Positions 1 through 16,236 of a stretch of DNA of 26,891 bases are shown in pieces (within the stretch, counting starts at the first letter, position 1; the number at the start of each line of letters is the position of its first letter). The stretch spans positions 1 through 26,891 of the forward strand of contig CAZSKP010000050.1 in NCBI GenBank assembly GCA_964607485.1, given 5' to 3'. Under the pieces are notes generated by a model, which did no database searches, had not been told where the DNA came from, and saw nothing but the letters and a program-made list of their open reading frames with translations. The translations under genes were made by a program, and so were the position numbers. This DNA is from an uncultured bacterium (lineage in GTDB: Bacteria > Abyssobacteria > SURF-5).

Positions 1-46
1 GTGACGGATTGGACAGGGAACCCGCTTATTGGAGAAGGAGAACCCA

Positions 47-739
47 ATGACAGAGAAAAATGGTCCGCTGACTGAATTGCGCAAGAATGTCATCTTGGGC
101 CGCATTGACAAGGATGAAGACCTTTATGAAGACATGATAGGCCAACCCGGCGTCGTCGAACTGACCCGACGGTGCGTAACAGACGGATTGGCAGTCAGAG
201 AGATTCTCCATGAAGGCCTCATCAACAGCATGGATGAGGTCGGGAGAAAATACGAGGACGGTGAATATTTCCTGCCCGACCTCATAGCCTCGGCCGACGC
301 GATGATTGCGGGCATGGAAGTCCTCAAACCCTATCTGCTCGAAGAACAGATAGAGGCGCGAGGCACGGTGATGATGGCGACCGTCGAGGGAGACGAGCAC
401 GACATCGGAAAGAATCTGGTGGGCATCATGCTGCGGGCCGCCGGCTTTGCACTGGTTGACCTTGGCACGCGTGTCAGCGCGACGGAAATCGCCAAGTCGG
501 TCGCCGAACACAAGCCCGACCTGCTCGGGCTGAGCGCACTGCTCACCTCCACGATGCCGCATATGAAAGAAACCATCGCCGAGTTGGAAAAGCAAGGACT
601 ACGGAAAGACCTGCGCATCATGGTCGGCGGGGCGCCCGTGTCTCCGGAGTTCGCACAGTCCATCGGCGCGGACGCGTACGGAGAGGACGCCTTCGAGGCC
701 GTGGAAAAGGCGAAACGGTTGACGGGAGTGGTCACATGA
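47..739 (+). CDS. Corrinoid (cobalamin-binding) methyl-acceptor protein, MttC/MtgC/MtaC-like
   Basis: B12-binding motif GDEHDIGKNLV (DxHxxG), LLGLSALLTSTM, IMVGGAPV and IGADAY; N-terminal cap domain (GLINSMDEVGRKYEDGEYFLPDL). ATG at 47 follows AAGGAG (35-40) and is preferred over TTG at 29. Confidence 0.93.
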   Translation: MTEKNGPLTELRKNVILGRIDKDEDLYEDMIGQPGVVELTRRCVTDGLAVREILHEGLINSMDEVGRKYEDGEYFLPDLIASADAMIAGMEVLKPYLLEEQIEARGTVMMATVEGDEHDIGKNLVGIMLRAAGFALVDLGTRVSATEIAKSVAEHKPDLLGLSALLTSTMPHMKETIAELEKQGLRKDLRIMVGGAPVSPEFAQSIGADAYGEDAFEAVEKAKRLTGVVT

Positions 740-1338
740 AACGGCGAATACTCAGCCGGCTCGATATCAAGACAAATCCCGAATCGGTGCTCAAGAGGCT
801 CGGCAGTGGAATCGACCGGCGGAAATGGGCTCGGGCAGTTGGCCGGATTTTCCGGGAGCACCAGTCTCGGATTAAGCCGAGGGGCGTTTATCACGAGGTC
901 ATCTGCCGGCCGAACGGGGCCGCGGTGGATATTGGAAGAGGGTTTCATCTTCGGAGCGAGTTCCTGAGAAAGCGCGTTGGAAGAGACGAGAAGGCGGCCA
1001 TATTTCTGGTTACCATCGGCTCCGAAATCGAAGAAATCATACGAGATGAGAGCCGCAGGGGGAGCAACAGGAGGGCCTACATTCTCGATTGCCTCGGTTC
1101 CACTGCGGCCGAGAACGCCGCCGCAGCGATTCAACGCGTGGTTCAGGAAGCGTTCGGAACAACAATGTGTCGTTACAGCCCCGGCTACAACGACTGGCAT
1201 ATCGAGCAACAGAAAATCCTGTTCGAGTTTCTCGGCTCTGAGGCAACCGAGGTGATTGGTGTCGATCTGACGGATGACTGTATGATGCTGCCCCGCAAAT
1301 CGGTCAGCGGGATCATCGTTCCGAAAAACAGTTCGTAG
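736..1338 (+). CDS. Stand-alone B12-dependent methionine synthase activation (AdoMet-binding) domain protein
   Basis: Motifs FLVTIG, YILDCLGSTAAE, RYSPGYNDW and MMLPRKSVSGII match the MetH C-terminal reactivation-domain family; ATGA overlap with the corrinoid protein gene. Confidence 0.85.
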   Translation: MKRRILSRLDIKTNPESVLKRLGSGIDRRKWARAVGRIFREHQSRIKPRGVYHEVICRPNGAAVDIGRGFHLRSEFLRKRVGRDEKAAIFLVTIGSEIEEIIRDESRRGSNRRAYILDCLGSTAAENAAAAIQRVVQEAFGTTMCRYSPGYNDWHIEQQKILFEFLGSEATEVIGVDLTDDCMMLPRKSVSGIIVPKNSS

Positions 1339-1469
1339 GCTCCCTTTTTGCCCAAGAATCTGCGCTTTTCCAGAAAAGCGACTATTGTGAGGTTGATTAC
1401 CCCGTGAAGACACAAAGACAAGAAGAAAAGGCGAGGCCGGAGCATTCCGGCATTGAACGGAAGAAATCG

Positions 1470-2924
1470 ATGGCGGCACGCAGAGGAATACCCGGCGGCG
1501 CATACAAGCCGCTCAGCGGCTCAGATATGGAGAGCGTGTGCAAGACGAGCTTCAAACTCCTGAGCGACGTGGGCATCCTGGTTCAGGAACCGGAGGCCCT
1601 GGAATATCTTGATAAGGCACATGCCCTGGTTAATCGCACATCCAAGATAGTCAAGATACCCGCATCGCTGGTTCACGAATGCCTCGAAGCCTGTCCCTCA
1701 CGCGTGACGCTCTATGGGCGGGATGACTCCCAAAACATCGTTCTTGAAGACGACCGCGTATACGCAGGCACCGGCGGCACGGCGCTGAACATACTCGAGT
1801 TCGATGCAGACCTCACGCGTCCCGCTCAATTGCAGGACCTCAAGTCTATCTGCCGGCTGGTGGATGCACTGGAAAACATACATTTCATTGTCCTCCCCAC
1901 GTATCCCAACGACCTGGAAATCAGCCGGGTGGACGTGAACCGCTTTTTCGCCGGGCTGAGCCAAAGTTCAAAGCATATCATGGGCGGAGTGTACACGGTT
2001 GACGGGCTGCGGCAGGTCATCCGGCTGGGAGAAATCGTTGCGGGAGGCCCCGACGCACTCCGCAAACGACCCATCATCTCCGTGATTACCTGTGTCATGA
2101 GTCCGCTCAAGCTGGACAGTCATTATGCACAGCTCATGATTGAAGCGGCGAAGGCTGGAATTCCCCTCTCCGTCCCTGCGGAACCGCTTGCAGCGGCGAC
2201 CTCGCCCGCGACGTTGGCGGGGACGCTCGCCGTTCAGGTTGCCGACAGCCTTGCCGGCGTCGTCTTGACCCAGATTGTCAATCCCGGCACTCCTGTCATT
2301 TTCGGGTCTGTGGCGACCACGACGGACCTGCGCGACATGAAGTATCTCGGAGCATCGGTAGAGAGCGGCCTCCTGAATGCTGCCGGCGCGCAAATTGCCC
2401 AACACCTGAAGGTGCCGTATTATGCAACGGCGGGGATGAGCGACTCGAAAACCGTCGATTGTCAGTGCGGCTACGAATCGGCGTTGACGCTCCTCCTCAC
2501 CGCTCTCTCCGGGGCCAACTTCATACACGATGCCGCCGGACTCATGGAATTCGCAAGCACGGTCAGCTATGAAAAATACGTCGTTGACAACGAAATCATC
2601 GGCATGGTCATGCGCGCACTCGAAGGAATCAGGGTGAATCCCTCTACTCTGGCGTTCAGCACGATCAAGGACGTAGGCCCGGGCGGCAATTTCCTCTCTG
2701 AACGCCACACCGTGAAACACATGAGAAGAGAAAACTATTTCCCCACCATCACCAATCGCGATCTTCGCACCAAATGGATTGCAGACGGCAAGCAGGACAC
2801 GTACGCAACTGCAAGCGAGAAGGTCCGCGAGATATTGGAGCGACACAAACCGCTGCCTCTGCCCGAGGAGGTGCTTGGCAACATTCGCAAGGAATTCCAT
2901 GGGATACTGGCGGACCATGATTGA
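1470..2924 (+). CDS. Trimethylamine methyltransferase (MttB) superfamily protein, non-pyrrolysine, copy 1
   Basis: YKPLS, SPLKLD, SPATLAGTL, NPGTPVIFGS, AGMSDSKTVDCQCGYE, GANFIHDAAGLME and VGPGGNFLSERHT are MttB/MtgB-family features; no in-frame TAG. An alternative GTG start lies at 1404. Confidence 0.92.
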   Translation: MAARRGIPGGAYKPLSGSDMESVCKTSFKLLSDVGILVQEPEALEYLDKAHALVNRTSKIVKIPASLVHECLEACPSRVTLYGRDDSQNIVLEDDRVYAGTGGTALNILEFDADLTRPAQLQDLKSICRLVDALENIHFIVLPTYPNDLEISRVDVNRFFAGLSQSSKHIMGGVYTVDGLRQVIRLGEIVAGGPDALRKRPIISVITCVMSPLKLDSHYAQLMIEAAKAGIPLSVPAEPLAAATSPATLAGTLAVQVADSLAGVVLTQIVNPGTPVIFGSVATTTDLRDMKYLGASVESGLLNAAGAQIAQHLKVPYYATAGMSDSKTVDCQCGYESALTLLLTALSGANFIHDAAGLMEFASTVSYEKYVVDNEIIGMVMRALEGIRVNPSTLAFSTIKDVGPGGNFLSERHTVKHMRRENYFPTITNRDLRTKWIADGKQDTYATASEKVREILERHKPLPLPEEVLGNIRKEFHGILADHD

Positions 2925-2933
2925 GGGGGCGGC

Positions 2934-3743
2934 GTGATCATCATCGGCGAAAAAATCAACGCGACGAGGAAGCGGATAGGAGAGGCCCTTCAGAAGAGGG
3001 ACGCGGGCTATTTGCGGCAAGTCTGTCAGGAACAGGACAGGGCGGGCGCTGACTATATAGACGTCAATGTCGGGACCGGCGACGAGAGCATAGACCGTGA
3101 AGCCTCAACAATGGAGTGGCTCGTGCGAGAACTCGAGGAAGTCTCTGAGAAACCCTTTTGCATCGACAGCTCCAGTCCCGAAGTCATTGAGGCGGGAGTC
3201 AAGGCGTGCAGTCGCGCCGTGCCGATGATCAACTCGGTAAACGGCGCCGCCGAGAAAATGGAAGCGCTGTTTCCCATTGCCGCGGAACACAAGACTCCGA
3301 TGGTTGCGCTCCCCGTGACCGAAGAGGGAATTCCCAAGGGACCGGATGATCGGGTTCGAGTGTGCAAGGCGATCCTCGAGCGTGCGGCCGAATTCGATAT
3401 TCCCGACGACGCATTGTTTTTCGATCCGCTGGTGGTACCCCTGTCCACGGGAGAAAAGCAAGGCGAGATAACGTTGGAAACGATAGCCAGACTCGAGGCG
3501 TTGCCCGGCGGAGCACGAACGGTCGTGGGATTGAGTAACATCTCCTTCGGGCTGCCCCATCGGTCGCTCATAAACCGCGCCTTTCTCACGATGGCGGTGG
3601 GCGCCGGGTTGGACGCCGCCATTCTCGACCCGAGCGATGCCAGGCTCATATCAGGACTGAAGGCAGCGGAATTGGTCGCCGGCAGAGACAGAAGATGCCG
3701 AAGATATGTGCGGGCGCACAATGAAGGGCGCCTTGTCGATTAG
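2934..3743 (+). CDS. Methyltetrahydrofolate:corrinoid methyltransferase (AcsE/MtgA-like pterin-binding TIM barrel), copy 1
   Basis: MIIIGEKINATRK, GADYIDVN, CIDSS, MINSV, FFDPLV, GLSNISFGLPHR and GLDAAILDP. Confidence 0.92.
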   Translation: MIIIGEKINATRKRIGEALQKRDAGYLRQVCQEQDRAGADYIDVNVGTGDESIDREASTMEWLVRELEEVSEKPFCIDSSSPEVIEAGVKACSRAVPMINSVNGAAEKMEALFPIAAEHKTPMVALPVTEEGIPKGPDDRVRVCKAILERAAEFDIPDDALFFDPLVVPLSTGEKQGEITLETIARLEALPGGARTVVGLSNISFGLPHRSLINRAFLTMAVGAGLDAAILDPSDARLISGLKAAELVAGRDRRCRRYVRAHNEGRLVD

Positions 3744-3783
3744 GAACTGAACTCAGGAAGGAAGTCAGAGGTCAGGCGAGATT

Positions 3784-5349
3784 ATGCAAGTACGGTCTCA
3801 GAGAGAAGGGGTCCTCGTTACCCCGTACGAACGCCTTACAGACGATCAAGTAAGCGCAGTACATCGTGCTTCCCTGGAGATTCTTGGGAACATAGGGATT
3901 GTTTGCGGCAACACGCAGGCCATGGAACTTTACGCGGATAACGGAGCGAAGATCGAGGCGCGCGACGGGACGACGATCGCAAAGCTTCCATCGAAACTGG
4001 TCGAGCGCTGTATCGAATCCTCGCCTTCAACTGTTTTGCTGGGCGCGCGCAATCCCGATAATCGTCTCATTCTGAACGCAGATGAGTCGCGCGTACGATT
4101 CGGCACCGGGTCAGAAACAAATGTTTGGCTGGACCTGCAGTGGGATAACGGAACCGCGGAGGCGGAAATCCCTTGTTGCGACGGCGAATCCCCCGGCTCG
4201 GACGAAGGCGCTCACATCCCTTCTTTCAGGAAAATGCGCGGAACGTTGGACCTCCTGTGCAAATCGGCCTGCCTTTGCGAACAGCTCGATTCGGTGGATT
4301 TCTTCATCCGAAACGTGAACATACAGGACGCCGAAATCGATGATGAAAACAAGGATGTCAATGTCTTCCTGGCGAGCCTGTCTAACATAACGAAGCACGT
4401 CATGGCCGGCATAAATCGAGTGGATAAGCTTCCGAATGTGATCAGGATGGCCGAAACAATCGCCGGAGGCGCGGCCGCGTTTGCGGAGAATCCCATCATC
4501 TCGTTCATCACGTGCGTCATCAAGAGCCCCCTCCAAATGGTCGACGACACCGCGGACAAATTGATCGCAATCGCCCGGCGCGGCATCCCGCTCGTGATAT
4601 CCTCCTCGCCCCAGGGCGGGGCTACGGGCCCCATCGACGAGGGGGACATGGTTGCGATGATAAACGCCGAGATTCTTGCCGGCATTGCCCTGGCTCAGCT
4701 TGTGCGGTCCGGAACGCCGGTTCTCTACGGCGCGGTTCCGGCAAGGGCGCGGATGGACACGCTCCACAACATGTACGGCGCTCCCGAATCGAACCAGTAC
4801 AACATCGACTGCGTTCAGATGGCGCGGCTTTATAAGATACCGTGCTATTCGACTGCGGGCGTCAGCGACGCCGCAATTCCGGGAATACAGGCGACCGTGG
4901 AACGATTGTTCTCGCATCTGAGCGTGACAATGAGTGGACCTCATTATCTTCACTATGCGTTCGGACTCTTGGACAAGACGAACATCTTTTGCCCGGCCCA
5001 GGCCGTGCTCGACGACGCACACATTGCGGCCGTCAAGCATTTCTGCCGGCAGCCGGCGGTCTCCGAATCGCGATTGAACAGAGGGATTCAGCAACTGCAA
5101 CAAACGATGGCCTCCTCTCACAAGCTGTTTGCACGGTTCGCGCGCAAGGGCATGCGCGACGGAAGCGTCTATCCTCCTTACCCGTTTGAGACTGCGGACA
5201 TGATGGATACGACGCTCTATCAGGCCGACGAACGCGCTCGCGAACTGATGCACAGGGAAACCGAGCCCATTGCGAGGGAGATAGTCGAAGATATTTGTGA
5301 AACGATCCCCGGCATTCTGCCGGAACTCAGGGCAACGATGAAGGGTTGA
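3784..5349 (+). CDS. MttB-superfamily methyltransferase, non-pyrrolysine, divergent copy 2
   Basis: PYERLTDDQVSAVHRASLEIL, KSPLQM, GATGPI, NAEILAGIALAQLVRSGTPVLYG and AGVSDA; the C-terminus diverges from copy 1. Confidence 0.88.
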   Translation: MQVRSQREGVLVTPYERLTDDQVSAVHRASLEILGNIGIVCGNTQAMELYADNGAKIEARDGTTIAKLPSKLVERCIESSPSTVLLGARNPDNRLILNADESRVRFGTGSETNVWLDLQWDNGTAEAEIPCCDGESPGSDEGAHIPSFRKMRGTLDLLCKSACLCEQLDSVDFFIRNVNIQDAEIDDENKDVNVFLASLSNITKHVMAGINRVDKLPNVIRMAETIAGGAAAFAENPIISFITCVIKSPLQMVDDTADKLIAIARRGIPLVISSSPQGGATGPIDEGDMVAMINAEILAGIALAQLVRSGTPVLYGAVPARARMDTLHNMYGAPESNQYNIDCVQMARLYKIPCYSTAGVSDAAIPGIQATVERLFSHLSVTMSGPHYLHYAFGLLDKTNIFCPAQAVLDDAHIAAVKHFCRQPAVSESRLNRGIQQLQQTMASSHKLFARFARKGMRDGSVYPPYPFETADMMDTTLYQADERARELMHRETEPIAREIVEDICETIPGILPELRATMKG

Positions 5350-5362
5350 GTGGTGACGCGTC

Positions 5363-6619
5363 ATGGAAACCGGTTCAGCTTACAGCGAGGCAATCAATTC
5401 GGGGCAGTACAAGAAAGAGCTGGGGCTGATAAAGAAATATGACAACGTTCGAATCTACTGGGAAGACGAAATAACGCGCGCCTTCCTGAGGCCCTATCTC
5501 GAGAAATTGATCGCGGAAAAAGAAGACCGATTGCAGCGACTGAGGATTCTCGACCTCGGATGCGGCAGCGGCGACGGCTTTGAGCTGCTCAAAGGAGTCC
5601 GCCGAAAAGATAACAACCTGACGACGCAGGAAATACACGCCATAAGCCAGGAGGACCTCGGCCTGTACCTGGGCGTGGACAACAATGCCGGGCTGATCGA
5701 GCAGGCAAGAGAGGTCCACGGCGAGAATCCCAAGCTCGAGTTTATCGAGGGCGACTTCTCGAACTTGACGCAACTGCTTGCGGGATACCCGCCCTTCGAC
5801 TTGCTCTTCAGCTCCTACGGGACGATGTCGCACTGCAGCGACGAGATGTTCGTCGATTTGACGCTCCAGGCGATGGAATATGCCGGGGACAACGCCATCG
5901 TCGTGTGCGACTGGCTCGGACGCCACGCATACGCATGGCAGGACATCTGGAGAAACGATTACACCGAAAGCCAGCACATGGACTACCGCATCTCCTACAT
6001 CTATCCCGACGAGATACGAGACAGCCTTGAGTTGGAAAGTTTTCCACTCAGGCTGATGAGCTCCGAGGAGGTGCTGCGCCTCATCGACAAGGTCAACGAA
6101 GCGGGGAAGAAGAAGCTGCGCCTGCTCAAGCTGGCTGACAGGTCTATCTTCGTCAGCCGTCACATGGACACGGGTGACTACAACAAGAAGTGCCAGCCGA
6201 TACGGCGCAGGGTCAACTCGCTCCACGAGGATTTCATGAGGACCCCGCTTGAACAACTGATAATAGATTACTATCCCAAGCCCGGGTTCAGCGAGGTCAA
6301 CGCGTATCTCGAAAAACTGCAGGTGTGCTGGAACACGCTCGTGAAATATGCGATGTTTCTCCTTGAAAGCTACGACAGAGACAGGGAGAAATTCCGGGAA
6401 GACAAGAAGGTCACGGGCGATTATCCCGAACCCTTGAGGAAAGGCATGCGGGAAATGAAGAAGGTGATTCAGGGAACCGGTTGGATTCAGACCGGAGACG
6501 TGAGAGCGAACATCATCGAGCCCCAACTGGGCTATGCGCTCAGGCAGCTCGAGATCGAGCTGCAGCAGGGTCTCGGCGTCGGCCACGGGCTCGTCGCGAT
6601 ACTTGAAGTTCACGGATAG
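5363..6619 (+). CDS. Class I SAM-dependent methyltransferase of unknown substrate (418 aa)
   Basis: Motif I ILDLGCGSGDG, acidic motif II YLGVD, EGDFS and FDLLFSSYG; long C-terminal region of unknown family. Confidence 0.82.
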   Translation: METGSAYSEAINSGQYKKELGLIKKYDNVRIYWEDEITRAFLRPYLEKLIAEKEDRLQRLRILDLGCGSGDGFELLKGVRRKDNNLTTQEIHAISQEDLGLYLGVDNNAGLIEQAREVHGENPKLEFIEGDFSNLTQLLAGYPPFDLLFSSYGTMSHCSDEMFVDLTLQAMEYAGDNAIVVCDWLGRHAYAWQDIWRNDYTESQHMDYRISYIYPDEIRDSLELESFPLRLMSSEEVLRLIDKVNEAGKKKLRLLKLADRSIFVSRHMDTGDYNKKCQPIRRRVNSLHEDFMRTPLEQLIIDYYPKPGFSEVNAYLEKLQVCWNTLVKYAMFLLESYDRDREKFREDKKVTGDYPEPLRKGMREMKKVIQGTGWIQTGDVRANIIEPQLGYALRQLEIELQQGLGVGHGLVAILEVHG

Positions 6620-6633
6620 GCGGCCCGTCCGAA

Positions 6634-7620
6634 ATGATTGAACTCAAGAACGTTTCGAAGATTTATCCGGATAATCAGGTGGCGGTAAACGACCTCTCCA
6701 TAACGGTGAAGGAAGGCGAGACGGTTGTCCTCATCGGCCCCAGCGGATGCGGAAAAACAACGACGCTTAAGATGATTAACCGGCTCATCGAGCCTACCGT
6801 GGGCGAAATATTCATTGACGGGAACGATATTTACAAGCTGAACGCTGTCACCCTGAGGCGTGACATCGGTTACGTGATCCAGCGGATCGGGCTGTTTCCG
6901 CACATGACGATCGAGGAGAACGTCTCAATCGTACCGTCGCTGTTGGGGTGGCCGGCGACAAAGAAACGCAGCCGCGCCAGGGAGCTGATGAGTCTCGTGG
7001 GATTAGCGCCCGATGTGTATTCCCATCGGATGCCCGATGAATTGAGCGGAGGACAGCGGCAGAGGATCGGCGTTGCGAGGGCTCTTGCCGCCAACCCCCC
7101 GATCTTGCTCATGGATGAGCCGTTCGGAGCGCTCGACCCGATAACCCGGCGCGATCTCCAGGAAGAGTTCCAGAATCTGAAGAACAGGATCAAGAAAACG
7201 ATTGTCTTCGTCACGCACGACATCATCGAGGCCGTGACGCTCGGAGATCGTATCGCCGTTATGGACAAAGGAAAACTCATGCAGTTCGGGCCGCCGCGGG
7301 AAGTCGTGCGCAATCCGGCGAACCCGACCGTCGAGAAGATCATCGGCCATCAGCTCTTTCAACTTACCCTGAGCTCGGAGACGATACGGAATACAATTGA
7401 AGAACAACCGTGGACTGCGTCGGAGTCGCCTCCCGAGGGCGTTGACGAGAATATGAGCCTTCTGGCTGCACTGAATTTGATGATTGAAAACGATGCGAGT
7501 GTTTTGCCTGTCGTGAGCAGCGAAGGTCATTTGAAGGGACTCCTCCGCAGGAAACGGTTGCTGCAGGAAATAGACAAAGTGTTCGCAGGGGAGTCGCGTC
7601 GGAGTGATTCCGGTGGGTGA
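6634..7620 (+). CDS. ABC transporter ATP-binding subunit, osmoprotectant/quaternary-amine family (OpuCA/OsmV-like) with C-terminal CBS-like region
   Basis: Walker A GPSGCGKTT, YVIQRIGLFPHMT, LSGGQRQRIGVARAL, Walker B LLMDEPFGALDP and FVTHD; CBS-like LPVVSSEGHLKGLL. Confidence 0.93.
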   Translation: MIELKNVSKIYPDNQVAVNDLSITVKEGETVVLIGPSGCGKTTTLKMINRLIEPTVGEIFIDGNDIYKLNAVTLRRDIGYVIQRIGLFPHMTIEENVSIVPSLLGWPATKKRSRARELMSLVGLAPDVYSHRMPDELSGGQRQRIGVARALAANPPILLMDEPFGALDPITRRDLQEEFQNLKNRIKKTIVFVTHDIIEAVTLGDRIAVMDKGKLMQFGPPREVVRNPANPTVEKIIGHQLFQLTLSSETIRNTIEEQPWTASESPPEGVDENMSLLAALNLMIENDASVLPVVSSEGHLKGLLRRKRLLQEIDKVFAGESRRSDSGG

Positions 7621-7635
7621 TTCAAAGGAATATCA

Positions 7636-9174
7636 GTGACTGAGTACGTCCAGTTTATTCTGTCCCGACTGCCCGAAATCGGGTGGTTGACGGTCGAGCA
7701 CGTCAGAATCACGCTCATATCGGTCGCGCTCGCGGTCGCAATCGGCGTCCCGCTGGGGGTCGTGCTTGTGAGGGCCCGACAGCTTGCGACCCCTGTCATT
7801 GGAGCCACGAGCGTGATTCAAACGATTCCGAGTCTGGCGCTGTTGGGATTTATGATTCCGCTGTTGGGAATCGGCGTCAAACCGGCCATCGTTGCGCTGT
7901 TTCTCTATGCTCTCCTGCCGATCGTGCGCAACACCTATACGGGAATCGACGGAGTCGACCCGGCCTTGGTCGAAGCGGGAAGAGGGATGGGCATGACAGA
8001 CGTGCAAATGCTCAGGAAAGTTCAGATACCCCTGTCTCTGCCCGTCATCATGGCGGGAATAAGGACCTCCACGGTCATTAACGTGGGGGTGGCGACCTTG
8101 TGCGCGCTCATCGGGGCCGGAGGATTGGGAGAACTCATATTCCGCGGCATCGCGATGGTAAACAGCCAAATGATCCTCGCCGGCGCGCTGCCGGCGGCGA
8201 TACTAGCGCTCGTGTTTGACGGCGCGCTCGGTCTAATTCAGGGAGGACTGATCAAAGGAAGGCGAGCTTCCTATCGGCTCATCGCCGGTCTGGTTCTGTC
8301 GATGGGGTTGATTCTCGTCGCTTTTGTTCCGTCGGGATTCGGCAAGAAGACGGAGAAACAGATTACTATCGGATCAAAGGAGTTCACGGAGCAGATTATT
8401 CTCGGGGAGATGCTCGCCCAGCTGGTTGAATCCAGGACGGGTGTCACCGTAGAAAAGAAATTCGGACTTGGCGGAACCATGGTCTGCTTCAATGCGCTCA
8501 AGAACGGCGAAATCGACCTCTATCCGGAATATACGGGCACGGGATTGACCGCCATCCTCAACCGTGAAGTTGTCACGGACCCCGACGAAGTGTACAGGAT
8601 CGTGAGAGATGAGTTTGAGAGGAAATTCGACCTGGTCTGGCTGCGTCCCTTCGGCTTCAACAATACTTATGCGCTGGCGATGCGAAGTGACCAAGCGGAA
8701 CAACTGGGCCTGAGCAAAATCAGCGATCTCTCCGGCAGGGACCTCGGACTGGTCCCCGGATTTACGCAGGAGTTCCTGGAGAGGCCCGACGGCTATCCCG
8801 GGCTTGTGAAAGATTACGCTCTGGAGTTCGCCGCCGAACCCAGAGGAATGGACCCCGGGCTCATGTATATCGCCTTGAAGGAAGGGAATGTGGACATTAT
8901 CTGCGCCTTCGCAACCGACGGGCGCATTCCGGCGTTTGACCTGCGGGTACTTGAGGATGACAGGCACTATTTTCCTCCCTACTATGCGGCGCCGCTTGTC
9001 CGCGAGGAGACCCTGGCGAGAGTGCCCGAGCTCGGCTCCATCCTGAATGAGTTGGCGGGTGTCATCACCGACGAGAAAATGGCCTCTTTGAACTATCAAG
9101 TGGATGAAGAAGGAAAGGCTCCCGAGACGGTTGCCTCGGAGTTTCTGCGAGAGGCCGGCCTGATTGCACAATGA
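7636..9174 (+). CDS. Fused ABC permease plus substrate-binding protein, glycine betaine/choline/carnitine family (OpuFB-like)
   Basis: Permease: QTIPSLALLG, EAGRGMGMT (EAA loop) and IGAGGLG. Binding domain: IGSKEFTEQ, IDLYPEYTGT, NNTYAL, AFATDG and FPPYYA. GTG start after AAGGA. Confidence 0.92.
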   Translation: MTEYVQFILSRLPEIGWLTVEHVRITLISVALAVAIGVPLGVVLVRARQLATPVIGATSVIQTIPSLALLGFMIPLLGIGVKPAIVALFLYALLPIVRNTYTGIDGVDPALVEAGRGMGMTDVQMLRKVQIPLSLPVIMAGIRTSTVINVGVATLCALIGAGGLGELIFRGIAMVNSQMILAGALPAAILALVFDGALGLIQGGLIKGRRASYRLIAGLVLSMGLILVAFVPSGFGKKTEKQITIGSKEFTEQIILGEMLAQLVESRTGVTVEKKFGLGGTMVCFNALKNGEIDLYPEYTGTGLTAILNREVVTDPDEVYRIVRDEFERKFDLVWLRPFGFNNTYALAMRSDQAEQLGLSKISDLSGRDLGLVPGFTQEFLERPDGYPGLVKDYALEFAAEPRGMDPGLMYIALKEGNVDIICAFATDGRIPAFDLRVLEDDRHYFPPYYAAPLVREETLARVPELGSILNELAGVITDEKMASLNYQVDEEGKAPETVASEFLREAGLIAQ

Positions 9175-9284
9175 TCGCGGCGGAAATCGAAGGAAAGGTC
9201 TTGTGGCGGTCGCTTCGTGAGTCGGAGGTCTGCCATTCTGAGATTCTCGTGGATTCTGGAAGCACGGAGAGAAGGGAGTAACGC

Positions 9285-10781
9285 ATGGCGGGAATTGTTG
9301 CGATTTTCGGACCCGACGCAGAGCGCGAGACTGACCTGGCTCGCACCATGCTCGCAAAAATAAAGCATCGCGGACCCGATTTTGAGGGAATATTCTCGGA
9401 GAAGAATGTCGTGTTGGGTTTCGTCGGGAAGAAAGCAGGCGCTTCGTCAAACGCCGAATCCATGCCCTTCATCGATGAGGATCGTCACACGGCAATCACC
9501 TGTGATGCGGAAATATATGCCCACGAGAGCGCGTTGCCGGATACTGCGCGCGAGAGGAACTTGACGGTGGAGAGCGCGAGAGCAATCGCCGACGCTGTCT
9601 TGAACTCCGGCAAACCTCTCGAAAAAGGACTGGAGGGGCCATTCAATTTCGTGCTTCACAAGAACGGCGACACTTATGCCGGAAGGGACCGCTTGGGCAT
9701 CGTCCCTTTGTATATGGCCGAGCGGGGCGACCTGACCGTATTCGCCTCGGAACTGAAAGCCATCAGCGGTCTGGCCTCGAACATCAGGGAATTCCCGCCG
9801 GGCAGCATCTATCTCTCATCTGGTACCCTCCGCGATTACGCGGGCGCCCCTCCGCCCTCCATTCGCGCGCAGCCTGTCGACTCCCTCTGTCTGCAACTCC
9901 GCGAACGGATAGAGGAAGCCGTCAAGAAGCGATTGGATTGCTGCGCGAGCAAGAAAGGCGTGTTTCTCAGCGGCGGAATAGACAGCAGCATCATAGCCGC
10001 GTTGGTCAGCAGGTACATCCCGAACGTCGATTCTTTCACCGTCGGCATGGAGAACAGCGAGGACGTTCCCTTCGCCCGCAAGGTGGCGGAGCATTTAGGA
10101 ACCAACCATCATGAGTATTCCTACGACCTGGATGAAGTCCTGAGCATCCTGCCCGACGTCGTTTATCACCTGGAGTCCTTCGATGCGCCGCTCGTTCGGA
10201 GTGCGACCGCCAACTATATTGCCAGCCGCGAAGCGAGCACGCGCGTTGACACGATACTCATCGGAGAGGGCGGGGACGAGGATTTTGGCGGGTACCACCA
10301 CGTGAAGCGCCTCAAGAGTGCCGAGGATCAGCAAAAGGAATTCATGAGATTGTTTCAGGGGCTCCACAATAACGGTTTCATGAGGACCGACCGGATGAAC
10401 TGGGCCCATTCCTTGAACGTGCGTGCGCCGTTCTTCGATACGGCGGTTGTTGAATTAGCCCTGTCAATACATCCGGAATTGAAATTGCACGGTGAAGACC
10501 AGACGGAGAAATGGATACTGAGGAAAGCCTTTGAGGACTACCTCCCCAAGGAAGTCATAATGCGGCCGAAAAAACAGTTCGCGCGCGGGTCGGGATCCGA
10601 TGACCTCCTCACCCGATATGCCGAAGGGGAAATCAGCGACCGGGAATTCGAAACCGAAAAGGAAAAATATCCCGCCGTGGACCTTCGCTGGAAGGAAGAA
10701 TACCTGTACTTCAAGATATTTAGAGACCACTTCGGCGACGACCCGTCAACGCTGGCAACCGTGGGCCGGTGGTATGAGTGA
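9285..10781 (+). CDS. Asparagine-synthetase-like ATP-dependent amide ligase with inactive glutaminase domain
   Basis: Synthetase domain intact (FLSGGIDSS PP-loop, GEGGDEDFGGY, RAPFFD, EKWILRKAF). The N-terminus is MAGI instead of MCGI, DAEIYA replaces NGEIYN, and there is no RLSI motif. RBS GGGAG upstream. Confidence 0.88.
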   Translation: MAGIVAIFGPDAERETDLARTMLAKIKHRGPDFEGIFSEKNVVLGFVGKKAGASSNAESMPFIDEDRHTAITCDAEIYAHESALPDTARERNLTVESARAIADAVLNSGKPLEKGLEGPFNFVLHKNGDTYAGRDRLGIVPLYMAERGDLTVFASELKAISGLASNIREFPPGSIYLSSGTLRDYAGAPPPSIRAQPVDSLCLQLRERIEEAVKKRLDCCASKKGVFLSGGIDSSIIAALVSRYIPNVDSFTVGMENSEDVPFARKVAEHLGTNHHEYSYDLDEVLSILPDVVYHLESFDAPLVRSATANYIASREASTRVDTILIGEGGDEDFGGYHHVKRLKSAEDQQKEFMRLFQGLHNNGFMRTDRMNWAHSLNVRAPFFDTAVVELALSIHPELKLHGEDQTEKWILRKAFEDYLPKEVIMRPKKQFARGSGSDDLLTRYAEGEISDREFETEKEKYPAVDLRWKEEYLYFKIFRDHFGDDPSTLATVGRWYE

Positions 10782-10849
10782 CCATGTTCGCGCATTCCAG
10801 AGGATATTTTTTCTAGATTGATTCGTTTCTCGAAGGATGGGAATGCCAC

Positions 10850-11644
10850 ATGTTGATTGTGGGAGAGAGAATTAACACGAGTCGAAAGCCGATAGCGGAA
10901 GCGACAAGAAGACGCGATTCGGCTTTCATCGTCAATGAGGCGCGCCTGCAACTCGAAGCGGGTGCGCACCTGATCGACGTCAACGCCGGCACCTTTGCCG
11001 AGCAGGAGAAAGAAAACCTCAGATGGTTGGTCAGCGTCCTCCATGACGAAGTCGCCGCGCCGCTCTCTATAGACAGCTCGGATCCGCTTGCCGTATCGGA
11101 GGCACTTGACATCTGCGGCAACGAAACGATGGTGAATTCCATTACCGCCGAGAAGGAGAAATATGCCGCGATGCTTCCCCTCATAAGAGAGCGCCAGTCA
11201 AAAGTCGTCGCTCTGTTCCTGGATGACGAGGGCGTCACGGGTGAACTGCAGGAAAAATTGAAGGTCGGATTCAATCTTCTGGAAAAACTCCTCGGGGATG
11301 GGATACCGCCGGACAAAATCTACGCCGACCCCCTTGTCATGGCGGTCGGCGCCACGCAGGATGGGGGCATCGTAACGCTCAGAACCATCCAGGAGATTCG
11401 GGTCAGATATCCAGGGATTCACATCATAGGCGGCGTCAGCAACATTTCGTACGGCGTCCCCGCGAGACCTTTGCTCAATCGAACGTTTCTTACCATGGCG
11501 ATGACAGTCGGACTTGATGCCGTGATCCTTGACCCGCTTGACAGCCAGATGATGGCAAGTGTCACCGCGGCAAATGCGATTCTGGGAAACGATGCGTTTT
11601 GTCGCGAATATCTCGCGGCTTATCGAAACAAGCAATTAGGGTAA
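10850..11644 (+). CDS. Methyltetrahydrofolate:corrinoid methyltransferase (AcsE/MtgA-like), copy 2
   Basis: MLIVGERINTSRK, GAHLIDVNAG, LSIDSS, MVNSIT, YADPLV, GVSNISYGVPAR and GLDAVILDP. Confidence 0.92.
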   Translation: MLIVGERINTSRKPIAEATRRRDSAFIVNEARLQLEAGAHLIDVNAGTFAEQEKENLRWLVSVLHDEVAAPLSIDSSDPLAVSEALDICGNETMVNSITAEKEKYAAMLPLIRERQSKVVALFLDDEGVTGELQEKLKVGFNLLEKLLGDGIPPDKIYADPLVMAVGATQDGGIVTLRTIQEIRVRYPGIHIIGGVSNISYGVPARPLLNRTFLTMAMTVGLDAVILDPLDSQMMASVTAANAILGNDAFCREYLAAYRNKQLG

Positions 11645-11715
11645 AGAGCAGCCGTCTTGTCGCGTGAGTGAAGCGGGACGCAGGATGTTTGGAGTTATTC
11701 AGGAGGGAGAAAAAC

Positions 11716-12381
11716 ATGGTTGACTTGAAAGAGCTCTCCGAAATCCTCCAGCAAGGAGACGCGAAGCGAGTACGCGAACTTACCACACAGGCGATTGAAG
11801 AGGGACTCTCTCCAAAGGAGATTCTGTCCGACGGACTGATTGCCGGCATGGATGTGGTCGGCGTGAAGTTCAAGGAAGGTGAGCTCTTTCTGCCCGAAGT
11901 TCTGAGTGTCGCGGGGGCAATGCACGCGGGATTGGAGGTGTTGAGACCGAAATTGGCGGAGACAGGGGCGAAACTTGTCGGAAGAATCGTACTCGGCACG
12001 GTGAAGGGCGACCTGCATGACATCGGCAAGAATCTCGTGGGAATGATGCTGGAAGGCGCCGGCTTTGAGGTGAATGACTTGGGGATAGATGTGGCCCCGG
12101 AACGATTCCTGGAAGCGGCCCAGGAGGAGGGTGTCGATATCGTGGGGTTGTCGGCTCTTCTCTCCACAACAATGCCGAAAATGAGAGAGACTGTCTATAA
12201 GCTGCGAGAGTCGGGACTTGTGCCGCACGTAAAGATAATGGTGGGCGGGGCGCCCGTCACCCGCAAGTATGCCGAGGAAATTGGCGCAGATAGCTACGGC
12301 GACAATGCAGCAGCCGCGGTCGACGAGGCGAGGAAACTCATCGGCATATCCTCCAACATCTCATGGCGAAAACAAAAATAG
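11716..12381 (+). CDS. Corrinoid methyl-acceptor protein, copy 2
   Basis: GTVKGDLHDIGKNLV, GLSALLSTTM, MVGGAPVT and IGADSY; ATG at 11716 follows the strong RBS AGGAGG (11701-11706). Confidence 0.94.
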   Translation: MVDLKELSEILQQGDAKRVRELTTQAIEEGLSPKEILSDGLIAGMDVVGVKFKEGELFLPEVLSVAGAMHAGLEVLRPKLAETGAKLVGRIVLGTVKGDLHDIGKNLVGMMLEGAGFEVNDLGIDVAPERFLEAAQEEGVDIVGLSALLSTTMPKMRETVYKLRESGLVPHVKIMVGGAPVTRKYAEEIGADSYGDNAAAAVDEARKLIGISSNISWRKQK

Positions 12382-12469
12382 CGGAAATTCCCCGGCAACG
12401 ATTCACAATCGCCGGGCACGTGTGAGTTGACGTAGAACCTACATTGGTACAACACCGGAGTGACGACCT

Positions 12470-13876
12470 ATGGCAAAGCCACTGCTGCTGTCTCATGAGC
12501 ATGCATCAACCATGCACGAAGCTTCGCTGAAAGTGCTCGAGAAGACGGGCATTCAACTGAACCATGCCGAGGCGGAAGACCTTTTCTTGGAAGCGGGCGC
12601 AACGAAGGATGACGAAGGTAGGATTCTCATACCGCGTGGACTTGTTGAACAGGCGCTGGAAAAGGCATCTCCCCAGATACAGTTGTACGACAGGAATGGA
12701 AAAGAATCCATCCTGCTCGGCAAAGGGAGAACATATTTCGGACCGGGCTCCGACGCGCTTTACAACTATGATATTGAAACAAAAGAGCTTCGGCTCTCGG
12801 TACTGGAAGATGTCAAGAACAATGCCCGACTGGCTGACTCCTTAGGATTCGATTTCGTCATGTCCATGGCGCTCCCCGAAGACGTTGCGCAGGATAAGCT
12901 GTATGCCGTGGTGTTTGCCGAAATGCTGAAAAACACCACCAAGCCATTGGTTGTCACCTCGACAAGCCTCGAAGATATCCAGCGAAATCACCACATAGCG
13001 TCATTGGTGAGAGGGGGAGAGGATAACTTAAGAAAAAGACCCTTCTGGCTGGCATACATAGAACCAATATCTCCCTTGATATTCGATGAGTGTTGCACGG
13101 CAAGGCTTCTCTATTGTGCGGAGCATGGTATTCCCTGCCTGTTCGCGGCCGGGGCCAACTGCGGCGGCGGAGCCCCGGTCACAGTGGAAGGGGGAGTGGT
13201 TCAAGGGACTGCCGAATCGCTGGCAGGCCTGACGCTTGCCTCGCTGAAAAACGAAAGGGTGCGCTTTGTCTATGGGACCAACACGTCCTCCATGGACATG
13301 AGAACCATGATTGTGTGCTATGGCTCCCCCGAATGGGCCAAGACGGTGGCGATGTATGCCGAAATGGGGGAGTATTACCATTTGCCCAGCTGGGGAACCG
13401 CGGGATGCAGCGACTCTTACGTGATAGATGCCCAGGCCGCCATGGAGGCGTATGAAGGAATATTCTGGGCTGTCCAATCCGGCACCACACTTGCCCACGA
13501 TGTCGGTTTCCTCGGGCACGGAGAAATGTATCATCCGGGAATGCTCGTGCTGACGGACATGATGATTCAGAGAGCACGGTATGTGTTGAGGAAACCGGAT
13601 CTCTCGGACGAGATTCTCGCCACCGATGTCATTGATGAGGTGGCGCGATCGGGGAAATTGTATGTCGCACATCCCCACACCGTAAAACACTTCCGGCAGG
13701 CGTTGTGGATACCGCCTACGTGGGTCTATCGGGACAAGATTGAGCAAATCTATGATAAGAAGGACCTTGCCGAGCTGCTGACCGATGAGGCCAAGAGCAT
13801 CCTCCTGAGACACAAACATGAGGAGCTCTCGCCCGACATCGCGCAAGAAATTGACGAATATTGTGCCACGATTTAG
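12470..13876 (+). CDS. MttB-superfamily methyltransferase, non-pyrrolysine, copy 3
   Basis: MHEASLKVLEKTGI, YFGPGSD, EPISPL, APVTVEG, AESLAGL, AGCSDSYVIDAQAAME, HDVGFL and HPHTVKHFR. Confidence 0.9.
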   Translation: MAKPLLLSHEHASTMHEASLKVLEKTGIQLNHAEAEDLFLEAGATKDDEGRILIPRGLVEQALEKASPQIQLYDRNGKESILLGKGRTYFGPGSDALYNYDIETKELRLSVLEDVKNNARLADSLGFDFVMSMALPEDVAQDKLYAVVFAEMLKNTTKPLVVTSTSLEDIQRNHHIASLVRGGEDNLRKRPFWLAYIEPISPLIFDECCTARLLYCAEHGIPCLFAAGANCGGGAPVTVEGGVVQGTAESLAGLTLASLKNERVRFVYGTNTSSMDMRTMIVCYGSPEWAKTVAMYAEMGEYYHLPSWGTAGCSDSYVIDAQAAMEAYEGIFWAVQSGTTLAHDVGFLGHGEMYHPGMLVLTDMMIQRARYVLRKPDLSDEILATDVIDEVARSGKLYVAHPHTVKHFRQALWIPPTWVYRDKIEQIYDKKDLAELLTDEAKSILLRHKHEELSPDIAQEIDEYCATI

Positions 13877-13915
13877 TGACGTTTTCGCAGGTGAACAGAA
13901 AGGTGGAAAGAACCG

Positions 13916-15400
13916 GTGTGTGGAATAGCCGCGATTTATGGGGATAGCAACCCGGAAATAGTCAGACGCATGACGTCACAATTGTGCCATCGCGGTCCGG
14001 ACGACGACGGCGTGTATTGCGACAACAATATCTCGTTGGGTCACACACGGCTGTCCATCGTAGATGTGGAGCATGGCCACCAGCCGCTGTTCAACGAAGA
14101 CGGCAGCATCGTCCTGATATGCAACGGGGAGATATATAACCACCTGCAGCTCAGGGAAAAGCTGGGCCGTCACGCGTTCAGCACGCGAAGCGATTCGGAA
14201 GTAATCCTGCACCTCTACGAGGAGCTTGGGCCGGAATGTGTGCGCGAGCTTGACGGCATGTTCGCGTTCATTCTGTTTGACGGAAAAAATCTCTTCGCTG
14301 CGCGCGACCCGATCGGCATAAAGCCCCTGTATCATGGAAAGCGCGGCGACAACCTCTGTTTCGCATCGGAAATGAAAGCCTTCTCGGGCTTGGTCGAGGA
14401 CATCTCCGAATTTCCCAACGGTAGTTACTACCACTCAGAGGAAGGATTTCAACCGTACTACGAACTGCCGCAAACGGAACCGCAGGTTGACGATGCGGAA
14501 TCGGCGGCTCATCATCTGCGAGAACTCTTTCAACAGGCCGTCGTCAAGAGGCTGATGGCCGATGTCCCGCTGGGGGTCCTCCTGAGCGGCGGATTGGACA
14601 GCAGCCTCGTGAGCGCGATGGCGTCCAAGCATGCAGACAATCTTAACTCGTTCAGCGTGGGGATGTCCGGGAGCGCGGACGTCATGGCGGCGCGGACGAC
14701 AGCCGATTTTATCGGCACCCATCATCACGAGTTCGTGTACACCATGGGGGACGTGCTGGAGGCTCTGCCCACCGTGATCTACTATCTCGAATCCTACGAC
14801 GCCCCTCTGGTGCGCAGCGCTGTTCCGACCTTTTTCGTCTCCCGCCTGGCCCGCCGCCACGTGAAGGTCATCCTGAGTGGCGAGGGAGCGGATGAGCTGT
14901 TTGCCGGCTACCACTACTACAAGAACTGTCCGAGCGGACAACTATTGCATCAGGAATTGGTCCGCAGCGTCGCAAGCCTGCACAACCTCAACCTCCAACG
15001 CCTCGACCGGCTCTCGATGGCTCACTCGTTGGAAGCGCGCGTTCCTTTCCTCGATGTGGCGCTCATCGAATACGCCCTCCAGTTGAGCCCCGCCTTGAAG
15101 ATCGAGGCAGCCAGCCAAACGGAAAAATGGATACTCCGAAAAGCATTTGAGGATATGCTGCCCCGCGAGATAGTCTGGAGGGTCAAACAGCAGTTTGCCG
15201 AGGGGTGCGGCTCGGCCGAACTCATCAGTGACTATGTGGAAAGCTTCATTTCCGACGAAGAATATCATACTGCGCTGGCTGAAGACCCGAGGTGTCGGGC
15301 GCGTTCAAAGGAAGAACTGTACTATTACAGAATCTTCTCTGAACATTTCGGAAATGAGAGTGCGGTCGGGTGCGTCGGCCACTGGGAAGAGACATATTGA
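13916..15400 (+). CDS. asnB: Asparagine synthetase B-like glutamine amidotransferase (glutaminase domain intact)
   Basis: GTG start followed by Cys (MCGI), HRGPD, RLSIVD, NGEIYN, SDSE, LSGGLDSS, SGEGADELFAGY and RVPFLD. Confidence 0.9.
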   Translation: MCGIAAIYGDSNPEIVRRMTSQLCHRGPDDDGVYCDNNISLGHTRLSIVDVEHGHQPLFNEDGSIVLICNGEIYNHLQLREKLGRHAFSTRSDSEVILHLYEELGPECVRELDGMFAFILFDGKNLFAARDPIGIKPLYHGKRGDNLCFASEMKAFSGLVEDISEFPNGSYYHSEEGFQPYYELPQTEPQVDDAESAAHHLRELFQQAVVKRLMADVPLGVLLSGGLDSSLVSAMASKHADNLNSFSVGMSGSADVMAARTTADFIGTHHHEFVYTMGDVLEALPTVIYYLESYDAPLVRSAVPTFFVSRLARRHVKVILSGEGADELFAGYHYYKNCPSGQLLHQELVRSVASLHNLNLQRLDRLSMAHSLEARVPFLDVALIEYALQLSPALKIEAASQTEKWILRKAFEDMLPREIVWRVKQQFAEGCGSAELISDYVESFISDEEYHTALAEDPRCRARSKEELYYYRIFSEHFGNESAVGCVGHWEETY

Positions 15401-15724: not shown

Positions 15725-15763
15725 CCCTTCGCCAGCAGGAAGAACCTCGGTTCATCCGACCGA

Positions 15764-16214: not shown

Positions 16215-16236
16215 TGCTTCTCTCCGGCAGCTCACA

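Follow-up and report, generated by a model that had tools for sequence, protein, structure and literature searches.

Gene content and organisation of the locus

The window analysed here is the whole of contig C50 (26,891 bases) of a metagenome-assembled genome of 4.7 Mb (93 contigs, 97.5% complete), and its first 15.4 kb hold a row of genes for corrinoid-dependent methyl transfer, a betaine-type ATP-binding cassette (ABC) importer, an S-adenosylmethionine (SAM) methyltransferase and two ligases related to asparagine synthetase B (AsnB). The row represents one copy of a cassette, undescribed so far, that is widespread among sediment anaerobes. We tentatively propose, as a possibility that falls somewhat short of probable, that the cassette builds an N-methylated asparagine-type betaine, whose first methyl groups would come through a corrinoid protein from methyl-tetrahydrofolate (methyl-H4folate) and the last one from SAM.

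The open reading frame (ORF) listing gives 13 plus-strand ORFs across positions 29-15400, separated by intergenic gaps of -4 to 110 bases (Table 1). A previous sequence-only reading of this DNA had described 13 co-directional and closely spaced genes; all of them are present, and every family that it had assigned is matched by Pfam and NCBIfam. The ORF of g01 opens with a TTG codon at position 29, the start at 47 given in that reading being the first ATG of the same ORF. The spacing fits a single operon, which is the likely arrangement; this call is made from spacing because a promoter and terminator scan of the window gave site counts no higher than those of shuffled sequence.

Table 1. Features of the window and of six B2-seeded loci that lack a complete AsnB gene (positions refer to the sequence named in the first column)
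Sequence	Feature	Position	Strand	Profile matches
Window	g01, corrinoid protein 1 (CoP1), MtgC/MtbC-like	29..739	+	PF02310 100.8 bits, PF02607 59.4 bits
Window	g02, free-standing MetH activation-domain-like protein (Act)	736..1338	+	PF02965 40.5 bits
Window	g03, MttB-1 (B1), pyrrolysine-free MttB superfamily	1404..2924	+	PF06253 333.4 bits
Window	g04, MT2a, methyl-H4folate:corrinoid methyltransferase (AcsE/MtgA/MetH-Fol type)	2934..3743	+	PF00809 86.8 bits
Window	g05, MttB-2 (B2), divergent MttB paralogue, cassette marker gene	3784..5349	+	PF06253 184.7 bits
Window	g06, class I SAM methyltransferase (418 aa) of a family without a name (410-430 aa)	5363..6619	+	PF13649, PF13847
Window	g07, ProV/OpuA-type ABC ATPase with CBS domain	6634..7620	+	PF00005, PF00571, TIGR01186
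Window	g08, fused ABC permease and OpuAC-type binding domain	7636..9174	+	PF00528, PF04069 240.8 bits
Window	g09, Cys-less AsnB-like ligase (AsnC-)	9285..10781	+	PF00733
Window	g10, MT2b, second methyl-H4folate:corrinoid methyltransferase, inserted module	10850..11644	+	NF005719 308 bits
Window	g11, corrinoid protein 2, inserted module	11668..12381	+	PF02310 104 bits, PF02607 73 bits
Window	g12, MttB-3 (B3), pyrrolysine-free, inserted module	12470..13876	+	PF06253 230.8 bits
Window	g13, glutamine-hydrolysing asparagine synthetase B (AsnC+)	13916..15400	+	PF00733, NF006949 619.6 bits
Window	Strong hairpin and T-run, 3' of the MFS gene	15724-15701
Window	MFS_2 transporter (497 aa) and TetR regulator with BetI-type C-terminal domain	16237-18239	-
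Window	Best promoter-like site of the MFS_2/TetR region (11/12 matches)	18308-18280
Window	ORF of 427 aa	18529-19812	-	No Pfam match at E <= 0.001
Window	B12-binding radical SAM protein	20188-21462	-
Window	PMT_2-family glycosyltransferase	21834-23519	-
Window	ORF of 356 aa	23733-24803	-	No Pfam match at E <= 0.001
Window	Sensor kinase and C-terminal part of an OmpR-type response regulator, cut by the contig end	25099-26890	-	HAMP, HisKA, HATPase (kinase)
L137	AsnB-like N-terminus running off the contig end
L096	Full core, no AsnB; aldehyde:ferredoxin oxidoreductase 3 kb downstream	16471-18396
L107	ABC transporter genes after the core, then contig end
L109	Histone-deacetylase-family amidohydrolase and CobW-type GTPase after the SAM methyltransferase	3818-5718
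L138	After the core: ProA, GCL/YbdK-family carboxylate-amine ligase, DUF362 protein	12922-17028
L157	After the core: ProA, GCL/YbdK-family carboxylate-amine ligase, DUF362 protein	13540-17494

Distribution of the cassette in genomes and metagenomes

The association of MttB with AsnB genes was followed in both directions. An alignment of the Cys-less AsnB clade, searched against one genome per species, gave 78 loci, which were compared with the 13 window proteins by tblastn and arranged in a gene-order table. In 15 of these loci, from at least seven phyla, a B1- and/or B2-type MttB lies on the same strand beside an AsnB-like gene; they belong to Spirochaetaceae, Planctomycetota (four), Syntrophales/Syntrophaceae, Desulfomonilaceae, Desulfobacteraceae, Thermodesulfovibrionia, Victivallales, Dehalococcoidia and unclassified bacteria. 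The usual order is Act-B1-MT2-B2-CoP-SAM methyltransferase-AsnB(Cys-less)-AsnB(Cys+), often with a MarR-family gene upstream, and both the Cys+ and the Cys-less AsnB are held by 10 of the 15. The closest relative, L001, is 64-77% identical per gene. Among the other 63 loci, 51 show neither MttB nor a g06 relative, and many of these are short contigs.

Conversely, metagenome contigs were searched with 13 aligned B2 proteins, which gave at least 539 relatives. Eighty loci were retained and scored by degenerate motifs, the flanks and PP-loops being tallied by hand. The g06 motif D-x-V-R-x-x-W-E-D occurs on the same strand, about 2.3 kb past the B2 start, in 60 of the 80 (the narrower motif RHMDTG in 14). 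Thirteen of the remaining 20 end too early after B2; seven have room for the gene (L089, L121, L126, L128, L143, L157 and L159), and the motif may vary there. The PP-loop motif SGGxDSS is found in 39 of the 80 loci, and lies downstream on the same strand in 34 of the 43 that have at least 4.7 kb after the B2 start.

Six of the nine exceptions were looked at (Table 1). In L138 and L157, the ProA proteins score 522-526 bits (cut-off 289) and the ligases are distant members of the glutamate-cysteine ligase (GCL)/YbdK family (39-46 bits); the DUF362 protein carries two 4Fe-4S motifs, and the block is followed by genes for an OpuA-type ABC transporter or a sodium:solute symporter. Because the exceptions keep the core, we define the constant part of the cassette as Act-B1-MT2-B2-CoP-g06 and consider the AsnB pair as its usual accessory. 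At least one alternative accessory block again includes an ATP-dependent carboxylate-amine ligase.

Co-occurrence in both search directions, together with the fusions of AsnB and methyltransferase domains described below, indicates that the AsnB-like genes belong with the MttB modules, as the sequence-only reading had supposed, and this combination is indeed outside all described MttB systems. A literature search turned up no paper describing an MttB/SAM methyltransferase/AsnB cassette. Within the phylum of the window's genome, B2 is present in 2 of 11 representative genomes; so patchy a spread, and the number of phyla in which the cassette occurs, suggest that it has moved between lineages.

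The three MttB proteins

The PF06253 matches of g03, g05 and g12 are all far above the cut-off of 25 bits, that of g05 being split in two stretches with an insertion of about 30 residues. All three proteins remain below the cut-off of 525 bits of the equivalog model TIGR02369 (442.9, 239.8 and 290.6 bits, respectively). Their frames contain no internal stop, and at the pyrrolysine position of PDB 7xcl (X) the alignments place Met for g03, Val for g05 and Cys for g12, so that the three MttB proteins are pyrrolysine-free, in agreement with the sequence-only reading. Orthologues of B1 (37-71% identity) occur in 13 other loci, and the family table (one member) shows no B3-type orthologue in the other 78 loci. 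Against MtgB, g03 scores 259.7 bits.

In the active site of MtgB, Y97 and F356 form the cation-pi pair while R312 and H348 bind the carboxylate, and R312 is reported as conserved in all MttB members of known function, all of them users of acidic quaternary amines (PMC13080624, in the part of the article available to us). These positions were mapped by pairwise HMMER alignments to 9yce and 2qne, that is, by sequence alignment only. Y97, R312, H348 and F356 correspond to G, Y, D and A in B1 (Y340 at the R312 position) and to T, Y, Y and T in B2 (Y355, invariant across 13 B2 sequences), so the Arg, the aromatic pair and H348 are all missing from both proteins. The trimethylamine enzyme 7xcl likewise has Tyr at the R312 position, and B3 has Trp. 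Because all four substrate residues of MtgB are replaced, B1 and B2 are unlikely to bind a classical acidic betaine; their site residues fit, as far as such an alignment can indicate, non-quaternary or non-acidic substrates.

The corrinoid methyl-transfer chain

According to Pfam, the cluster combines B12-binding proteins (g01, g11), methyltransferases of the MT2 type (g04, g10) and an adjacent activator (g02), and the MT2, CoP and Act proteins all match the metH model of NCBIfam. The corrinoid protein g01 reaches 196.7 bits with the MtgC-type models of NCBIfam, under their cut-off, and is 70% identical to its counterpart in L001. Both MT2 proteins exceed the cut-off of NF005719 (259 bits), g04 with 298 bits. 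The g02 gene overlaps g01 by 4 bases, and its PF02965 match spans profile positions 116-249 of 273; the protein is presumed to be a SAM-dependent reactivator of the corrinoid protein. A member of the Act family lies upstream of B1 in L001, L038, L039, L041, L052, L056, L078, L096, L138 and L157.

The activator in the cluster is thus of the MetH type, and no RamA/RACo gene is present there. Three RACo/RamA-type activators are encoded elsewhere in the genome, on contigs C60, C19 and C5, along with an acetyl-CoA synthase (ACS) beta subunit and a formyl-H4folate synthetase (FTHFS). From these ACS, FTHFS and RACo genes we consider methyl-H4folate to be a central metabolite of the organism. The genome outside the window also has one more MttB gene (C19) and one long-form Asn_synthase gene (C58).

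The g10-g12 genes are absent from between the two AsnB genes of L001, where the AsnB pair adjoins, and are therefore regarded as a lineage-specific insertion. Among the compared loci, only the window genome has an MT2b-CoP2-MttB3 set between the AsnB genes.

The two AsnB-like proteins

By its sequence, g13 is an ordinary glutamine-hydrolysing asparagine synthetase: it starts with MCGI, carries SGGLDSS, exceeds the NF006949 cut-off of 499 bits and scores 366 bits against E. coli AsnB (PDB 1ct9). Its cluster-linked orthologues are 48-70% identical. The g09 protein, which has an AsnB-like length and is about 42% identical to g13, starts with MAGI, so that Ala replaces the Cys nucleophile; it has also lost the equivalents of R49, N74 and G75, and LGFVGK and DAEIYA stand in the places of the glutaminase motifs HxRLSI and NGEIYN. 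The PP-loop SGGIDSS and GEGGDE are kept. With 409 bits for NF006949, it falls under the cut-off for glutamine-hydrolysing AsnB, and it reaches 115 bits, again under the cut-off, with the lasso-peptide model of NCBIfam. We therefore predict for g09 a dead glutaminase domain and an intact PP-loop synthetase domain.

In each of 13 other cluster loci, too, one of the AsnB-like genes has lost the Cys (14 sequences with g09), the 11 closest g09 relatives with a full N-terminus begin with MAGI, MGGF, MSGI/MSGL or MKGI, none having the Cys, and clade P0002-P0013 is entirely Cys-less. In a maximum-likelihood tree of 31 AsnB-like proteins (unrooted, no outgroup), Cys+ and Cys-less sequences split at one branch with a support of 97/97. 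The Cys-less side comprises three long-branched subclades and travels with the cassette, and the Cys+ proteins from cyanobacteria nest within the anaerobe ones.

The SAM methyltransferase g06

The family of g06 counts 1787 word-index relatives, none with a name more specific than "SAM-dependent methyltransferase", and 94 representatives at E <= 1e-30 in the library of 50% representatives. The g06 sequence has no match among solved structures (PDB) and nothing meaningful in NCBIfam, and an Atlas search with its homologue P0165 returned unnamed clusters only. The model of g06 (predicted local distance difference test, pLDDT, 86.8) has generic class I methyltransferases as neighbours in Foldseek and VIA-align, with Z scores of 19.4 to 14.2 and no class standing clear (5gwx, Z 15.4; 6wlf, Z 15.9).

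The partnership of g06 with AsnB also exists without MttB. In 11 cyanobacterial loci (Rivularia, Coleofasciculus, Crocosphaera/Cyanothece and one Thermosynechococcaceae MAG), a g06 relative adjoins a g13-type AsnB in the absence of MttB, with an OpuAC gene next to the two in one of the 11. Crocosphaera subtropica ATCC 51142 (cce_2878) and Coleofasciculus chthonoplastes PCC 7420 carry this two-gene module, and the g06 relative is single-copy in five such cyanobacterial genomes. An exhaustive search of the representative library revealed fusions as well. P0303 (934 aa, starting with MCGI) consists of a Cys+ AsnB followed by a C-terminal g06-family domain; P0304 (901 aa; its sequence starts within the glutaminase domain) has the same order; and P0401 is a fragment of this kind of fusion. 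Fusion and adjacency indicate that AsnB and g06 work in one pathway. Linked to AsnB in this way and to B2 by its position, g06 is the hub gene of the cassette. In P0346, a g06-family domain is attached to a universal stress protein domain.

In five of the cyanobacterial loci (L025, L028, L031, L036 and L063, from Coleofasciculus, Cyanothece and Crocosphaera), a 705-aa protein with two glutaminase A domains is encoded on the opposite strand between AsnB and the g06-like gene.

CpcM, the phycobiliprotein asparagine N-methyltransferase, is general in phycobilisome-bearing cyanobacteria. Relatives of g06 (E <= 1e-20) occur in 3 of 201 sampled cyanobacterial genomes, and owing to this rarity we rejected CpcM as the identity of g06. 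The two are alike in length and domain layout, CpcM (Sll0487) having 402 aa with PF13649 at residues 58-155 (PMC7801250, part of the article).

Importer and neighbouring genes

Genes g07 and g08 have the architecture of an OpuA/OpuC-type importer, with a ProV-type ATPase bearing a CBS domain (TIGR01186 proV, 347 bits for a cut-off of 326.6), a permease and an OpuAC domain; the quaternary-amine-type importer of the sequence-only reading is thereby borne out by Pfam and NCBIfam. The nearest solved relatives of the g08 binding domain are sensors annotated for acetylcholine or nicotine, Lmo1422, EgtUC (ergothioneine), OpuCC and ProX, so that the domain is closest to binders of trimethylammonium compounds, among them ergothioneine, an amino-acid betaine.

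Convergent with the cassette, an MFS_2 transporter and a TetR regulator with a BetI-type C-terminal domain follow on the minus strand (Table 1). The regulator may sense a choline- or betaine-like ligand. Further along, the B12-binding radical SAM protein and the PMT_2-family glycosyltransferase are unrelated to the cassette by strand and spacing. Two long ORFs and a two-component system complete the window.

Proposed function

The product of the cassette would be an N-methylated, amide-bearing amino-acid solute, the simplest candidate being asparagine methylated on its alpha-nitrogen, up to the betaine. Under this scheme, g13 would make asparagine from aspartate, glutamine and ATP, and g09 would form an amide bond with free ammonia or an amine, either as a second source of the amide or to make a second amide. 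B1 and B2 would each place one methyl group on the amine, from methyl-H4folate through MT2 and the methyl-Co(III) corrinoid protein, while g02 would re-methylate oxidised corrinoid with SAM. The final methyl, which makes the nitrogen quaternary and is the energetically costly step, would be supplied from SAM by g06. The OpuC/EgtU-like importer would take up the same type of solute, and g10-g12 would be a further MT2/CoP/MttB set brought in by insertion. What we infer here is which way the methyl groups flow, what the substrate is and that the product has a role in salt stress.

Several observations lead us to this synthesis. The g06, AsnB, ProA and carboxylate-amine ligase proteins are all of biosynthetic types, and the AsnB-g06 module and fusions exist without MttB. 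The chain is built like methionine synthase and has a MetH-type activator encoded alongside it, and methyl-H4folate is central in the organism. Two fixed MttB proteins and one SAM enzyme match three N-methylations; the site residues of B1 and B2 fit non-quaternary or non-acidic substrates; and the importer domain is closest to trimethylammonium binders, ergothioneine included. The energetics point the same way, since methylation of primary and secondary amines by methyl-H4folate is exergonic by roughly 20 kJ/mol, and the quaternising step needs a stronger donor. A bidirectional corrinoid methyltransferase has also been reported (PMC12478193, in the part available), which we count for synthesis. 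A bolder form of the proposal, in which the MttB proteins run opposite to the characterised members, as a split methionine synthase retargeted to nitrogen, and produce a new asparagine-derived betaine that serves sediment anaerobes of many phyla as a stress solute and that a few marine cyanobacteria make in an all-SAM version, must be considered doubtful.

Other points weigh against the synthesis of a solute. We know of no MttB member that methylates an amine. An importer with MarR/TetR regulators is the usual layout of a catabolic cluster. As no distinct class emerges among the structural neighbours of the g06 model, they do not show N-methylation. An asparagine betaine would retain the alpha-carboxylate, and the missing Arg of B1 and B2 is then not predicted by the simplest product. 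The ProA/GCL-ligase/DUF362 variant, the aldehyde:ferredoxin oxidoreductase of L096 and the deacetylase-family gene of L109 are left unexplained, and the literature search found no paper containing "asparagine betaine" or "trimethylasparagine". Finally, all six MttB members with a known substrate are demethylases that feed a corrinoid (PMC12155760, as far as the accessible part goes).

Alternative explanations

The main rival is a catabolic route, which we hold to be rather unlikely: a methylated amine other than a classical acidic betaine would be imported by the OpuC-like transporter, derivatised with ATP by the AsnB-like enzymes, through ligation to the Asp side chain or amidation of its own carboxylate, and then demethylated by B1 and B2 to give methyl-H4folate for the Wood-Ljungdahl pathway. 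It would keep the direction of every characterised superfamily member, and the choline kinase MthK is a precedent for ATP-dependent derivatisation before an MttB step (both from the available part of PMC12155760). The succession of MT1, CoP, MT2, activator, importer and regulator is that of known catabolic clusters, and ACS, FTHFS and three RACo proteins are encoded in the genome. A neutral amide as substrate would agree with the missing carboxylate-binding Arg, and g09 or the GCL-family ligase of L138 and L157 could join an amine to Asp or Glu. Nevertheless, this route has no sensible role for the SAM-consuming g06, since to methylate and then demethylate is futile, yet g06 is the most constant partner of B2; nor does it account for AsnB-methyltransferase pairs and fusions without MttB. 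An AMP-forming ligation would cost about two ATP per molecule, by our estimate, for a small yield per methyl, and demethylation of tertiary or secondary amines onto H4folate is endergonic. The sequence-only reading had offered both directions. In its catabolic version, a methylamine was to be bound in an N-methylamide, which an MttB would then demethylate. One part of this, the joining of an amine to the side chain of Asp or Glu through its carboxylate, gains support, as g09 has lost its glutaminase and a GCL-family ligase fills the slot in two AsnB-less loci. The demethylation does not: an amide N-methyl is uncharged and gives up its methyl group poorly, and the SAM methyltransferase would be left over, so the N-methylamide was set aside on chemical grounds. 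Its other version, in which methyl-H4folate and SAM serve to build a solute that is N-methylated and amidated, accounts for more of the observations and is the one we prefer, although it is not proven. Four features had escaped that reading: the different nature of the two AsnB genes, the central place of g06, the lineage-specific insertion of g10-g12 and the lack of the carboxylate-binding Arg in the MttB proteins.

The remaining explanations are less likely than the catabolic one. It is improbable that g06 and AsnB make a solute entirely with SAM, as in the cyanobacteria, while B1, B2, CoP and MT2 strip its methyls back to methyl-H4folate once the solute is no longer required or after it has been imported. 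Such a make-and-salvage arrangement would retain the known MttB direction and find a use for g06; in cyanobacteria, the module of g06 and AsnB is seen to stand alone, and the importer fits uptake for protection as well as for use. But same-strand genes for synthesis and breakdown packed 9-110 bases apart would run a futile, ATP-costly cycle unless controlled post-translationally, separate promoters were not seen in the scan of the window, and B1 and B2 lack the aromatic pair with which MtgB holds a quaternary nitrogen. Even less credible is the modification of a protein or peptide, where the accessory enzymes would amidate or lactamise and methylate, for instance, B2 or the corrinoid protein, on the model of lasso-peptide cyclases and CpcM. 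Cys-less AsnB homologues do include lasso-peptide cyclases, whose model matches g09 below its cut-off, and the length and layout of g06 recall CpcM (PMC7801250, same portion); however, no precursor peptide or protease gene was found among the cluster ORFs (ORF listing, Pfam), the distribution of g06 relatives in cyanobacteria is not that of CpcM, and an importer with a betaine-type binding domain points to a small molecule. Least likely of all is the chance adjacency of housekeeping AsnB genes and an ordinary betaine demethylation operon with no shared pathway. The score of g13 as a bona fide AsnB, the many g13-like genes of about 50% identity in unrelated contexts and the 51 of 78 loci with neither MttB nor g06 would agree with it, but it is already contradicted by the co-occurrence counts in both directions and the AsnB::g06 fusions; both AsnB copies are kept in most of the 15 AsnB-seeded loci, and the long-form gene on C58 could do the housekeeping.

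Significance of the cassette

Quaternary amines and their methyl groups are major currencies of carbon, nitrogen and methane precursors in anoxic sediments. The cassette is common, given its hundreds of metagenomic B2 relatives and its spread over phyla, and it breaks a rule, as the known pyrrolysine-free MttB proteins bind acidic betaines through the conserved Arg. If the biosynthetic reading is true, it would represent a cheaper, folate-driven synthesis of betaines, a new direction for the MttB superfamily and a new natural solute; the reverse methyl flow would make it more than a variant of known corrinoid systems. If the catabolic reading is true, ATP-dependent amide conjugation would let pyrrolysine-free anaerobes use amines thought to be closed to them. 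The superfamily is very large, with six members of known substrate (PMC12155760, available part).

Comparison with known systems

Among the closest described counterparts is the MtgB/MtgC/MtgA system of Desulfitobacterium hafniense (2qne, 9yce), which likewise consists of a pyrrolysine-free MttB TIM barrel as first methyltransferase (MT1), a cognate corrinoid protein with a DxHxxG-type B12 domain, a pterin-binding MT2 and a nearby betaine-type importer. The cassette differs from it by the replacement of all four glycine-betaine-binding residues in B1 and B2, by two fixed MttB paralogues on one corrinoid protein, by a MetH-type activator in the cluster instead of RamA, and by the extra SAM methyltransferase and AsnB pair.

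The MthB/MthC/MthA/MthK choline pathway of Eubacterium limosum, for which co-localisation across genomes was also used as evidence, shares an ATP-dependent derivatisation of the substrate ahead of the corrinoid step (PMC12155760, in part). MthK, however, is a kinase that makes the substrate acidic, whereas the ATP-dependent enzymes of the cassette would, as amide synthetases, take an acidic group away. The conserved Arg, which B1 and B2 lack, is retained in MthB according to the authors' statement on their alignment (PMC13080624, available part), and no SAM methyltransferase belongs to the Mth system.

Methionine synthase (MetH) and its split forms, such as Ruegeria MtgBCD (PMC12478193) and the Electryoneota cluster (PMC9324843), have separate folate, cobalamin and activation modules like the cassette, and in methionine synthase the methyl group flows from methyl-H4folate to an acceptor, as proposed here. 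A free-standing activation protein beside an MttB homologue has already been published (PMC9324843); in the part of that report available to us, its cluster contains a homocysteine module and no MT2, g06 or AsnB. Conversely, the cassette has no homocysteine-binding module, the acceptor/donor modules being two MttB barrels, and the published split-MetH clusters show neither a g06 methyltransferase nor AsnB genes in the portions of these articles at hand.

Among AsnB relatives (1ct9; beta-lactam synthetase, 1jgt; CarA, 1q15), g09 shares the two-domain fold, SGGxDSS and the Glu of GEG, and it is closer to 1ct9 (248.7 bits) than to beta-lactam synthetase (100.9 bits), although unlike E. coli AsnB it has Ala in place of the Cys nucleophile. 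As for g06, it shares the class I Rossmann core with the SAM-dependent betaine-forming N-methyltransferases (glycine/sarcosine N-methyltransferase, 5gwx; phosphoethanolamine N-methyltransferase, 6wlf, 5wp5) and the N-terminal methyltransferases (7d8d, 5cvd), with Z scores of 15-17; compared with the betaine-forming enzymes, it has an extra region of about 200 residues, and these Z scores do not set the enzymes apart from many unrelated class I methyltransferases.

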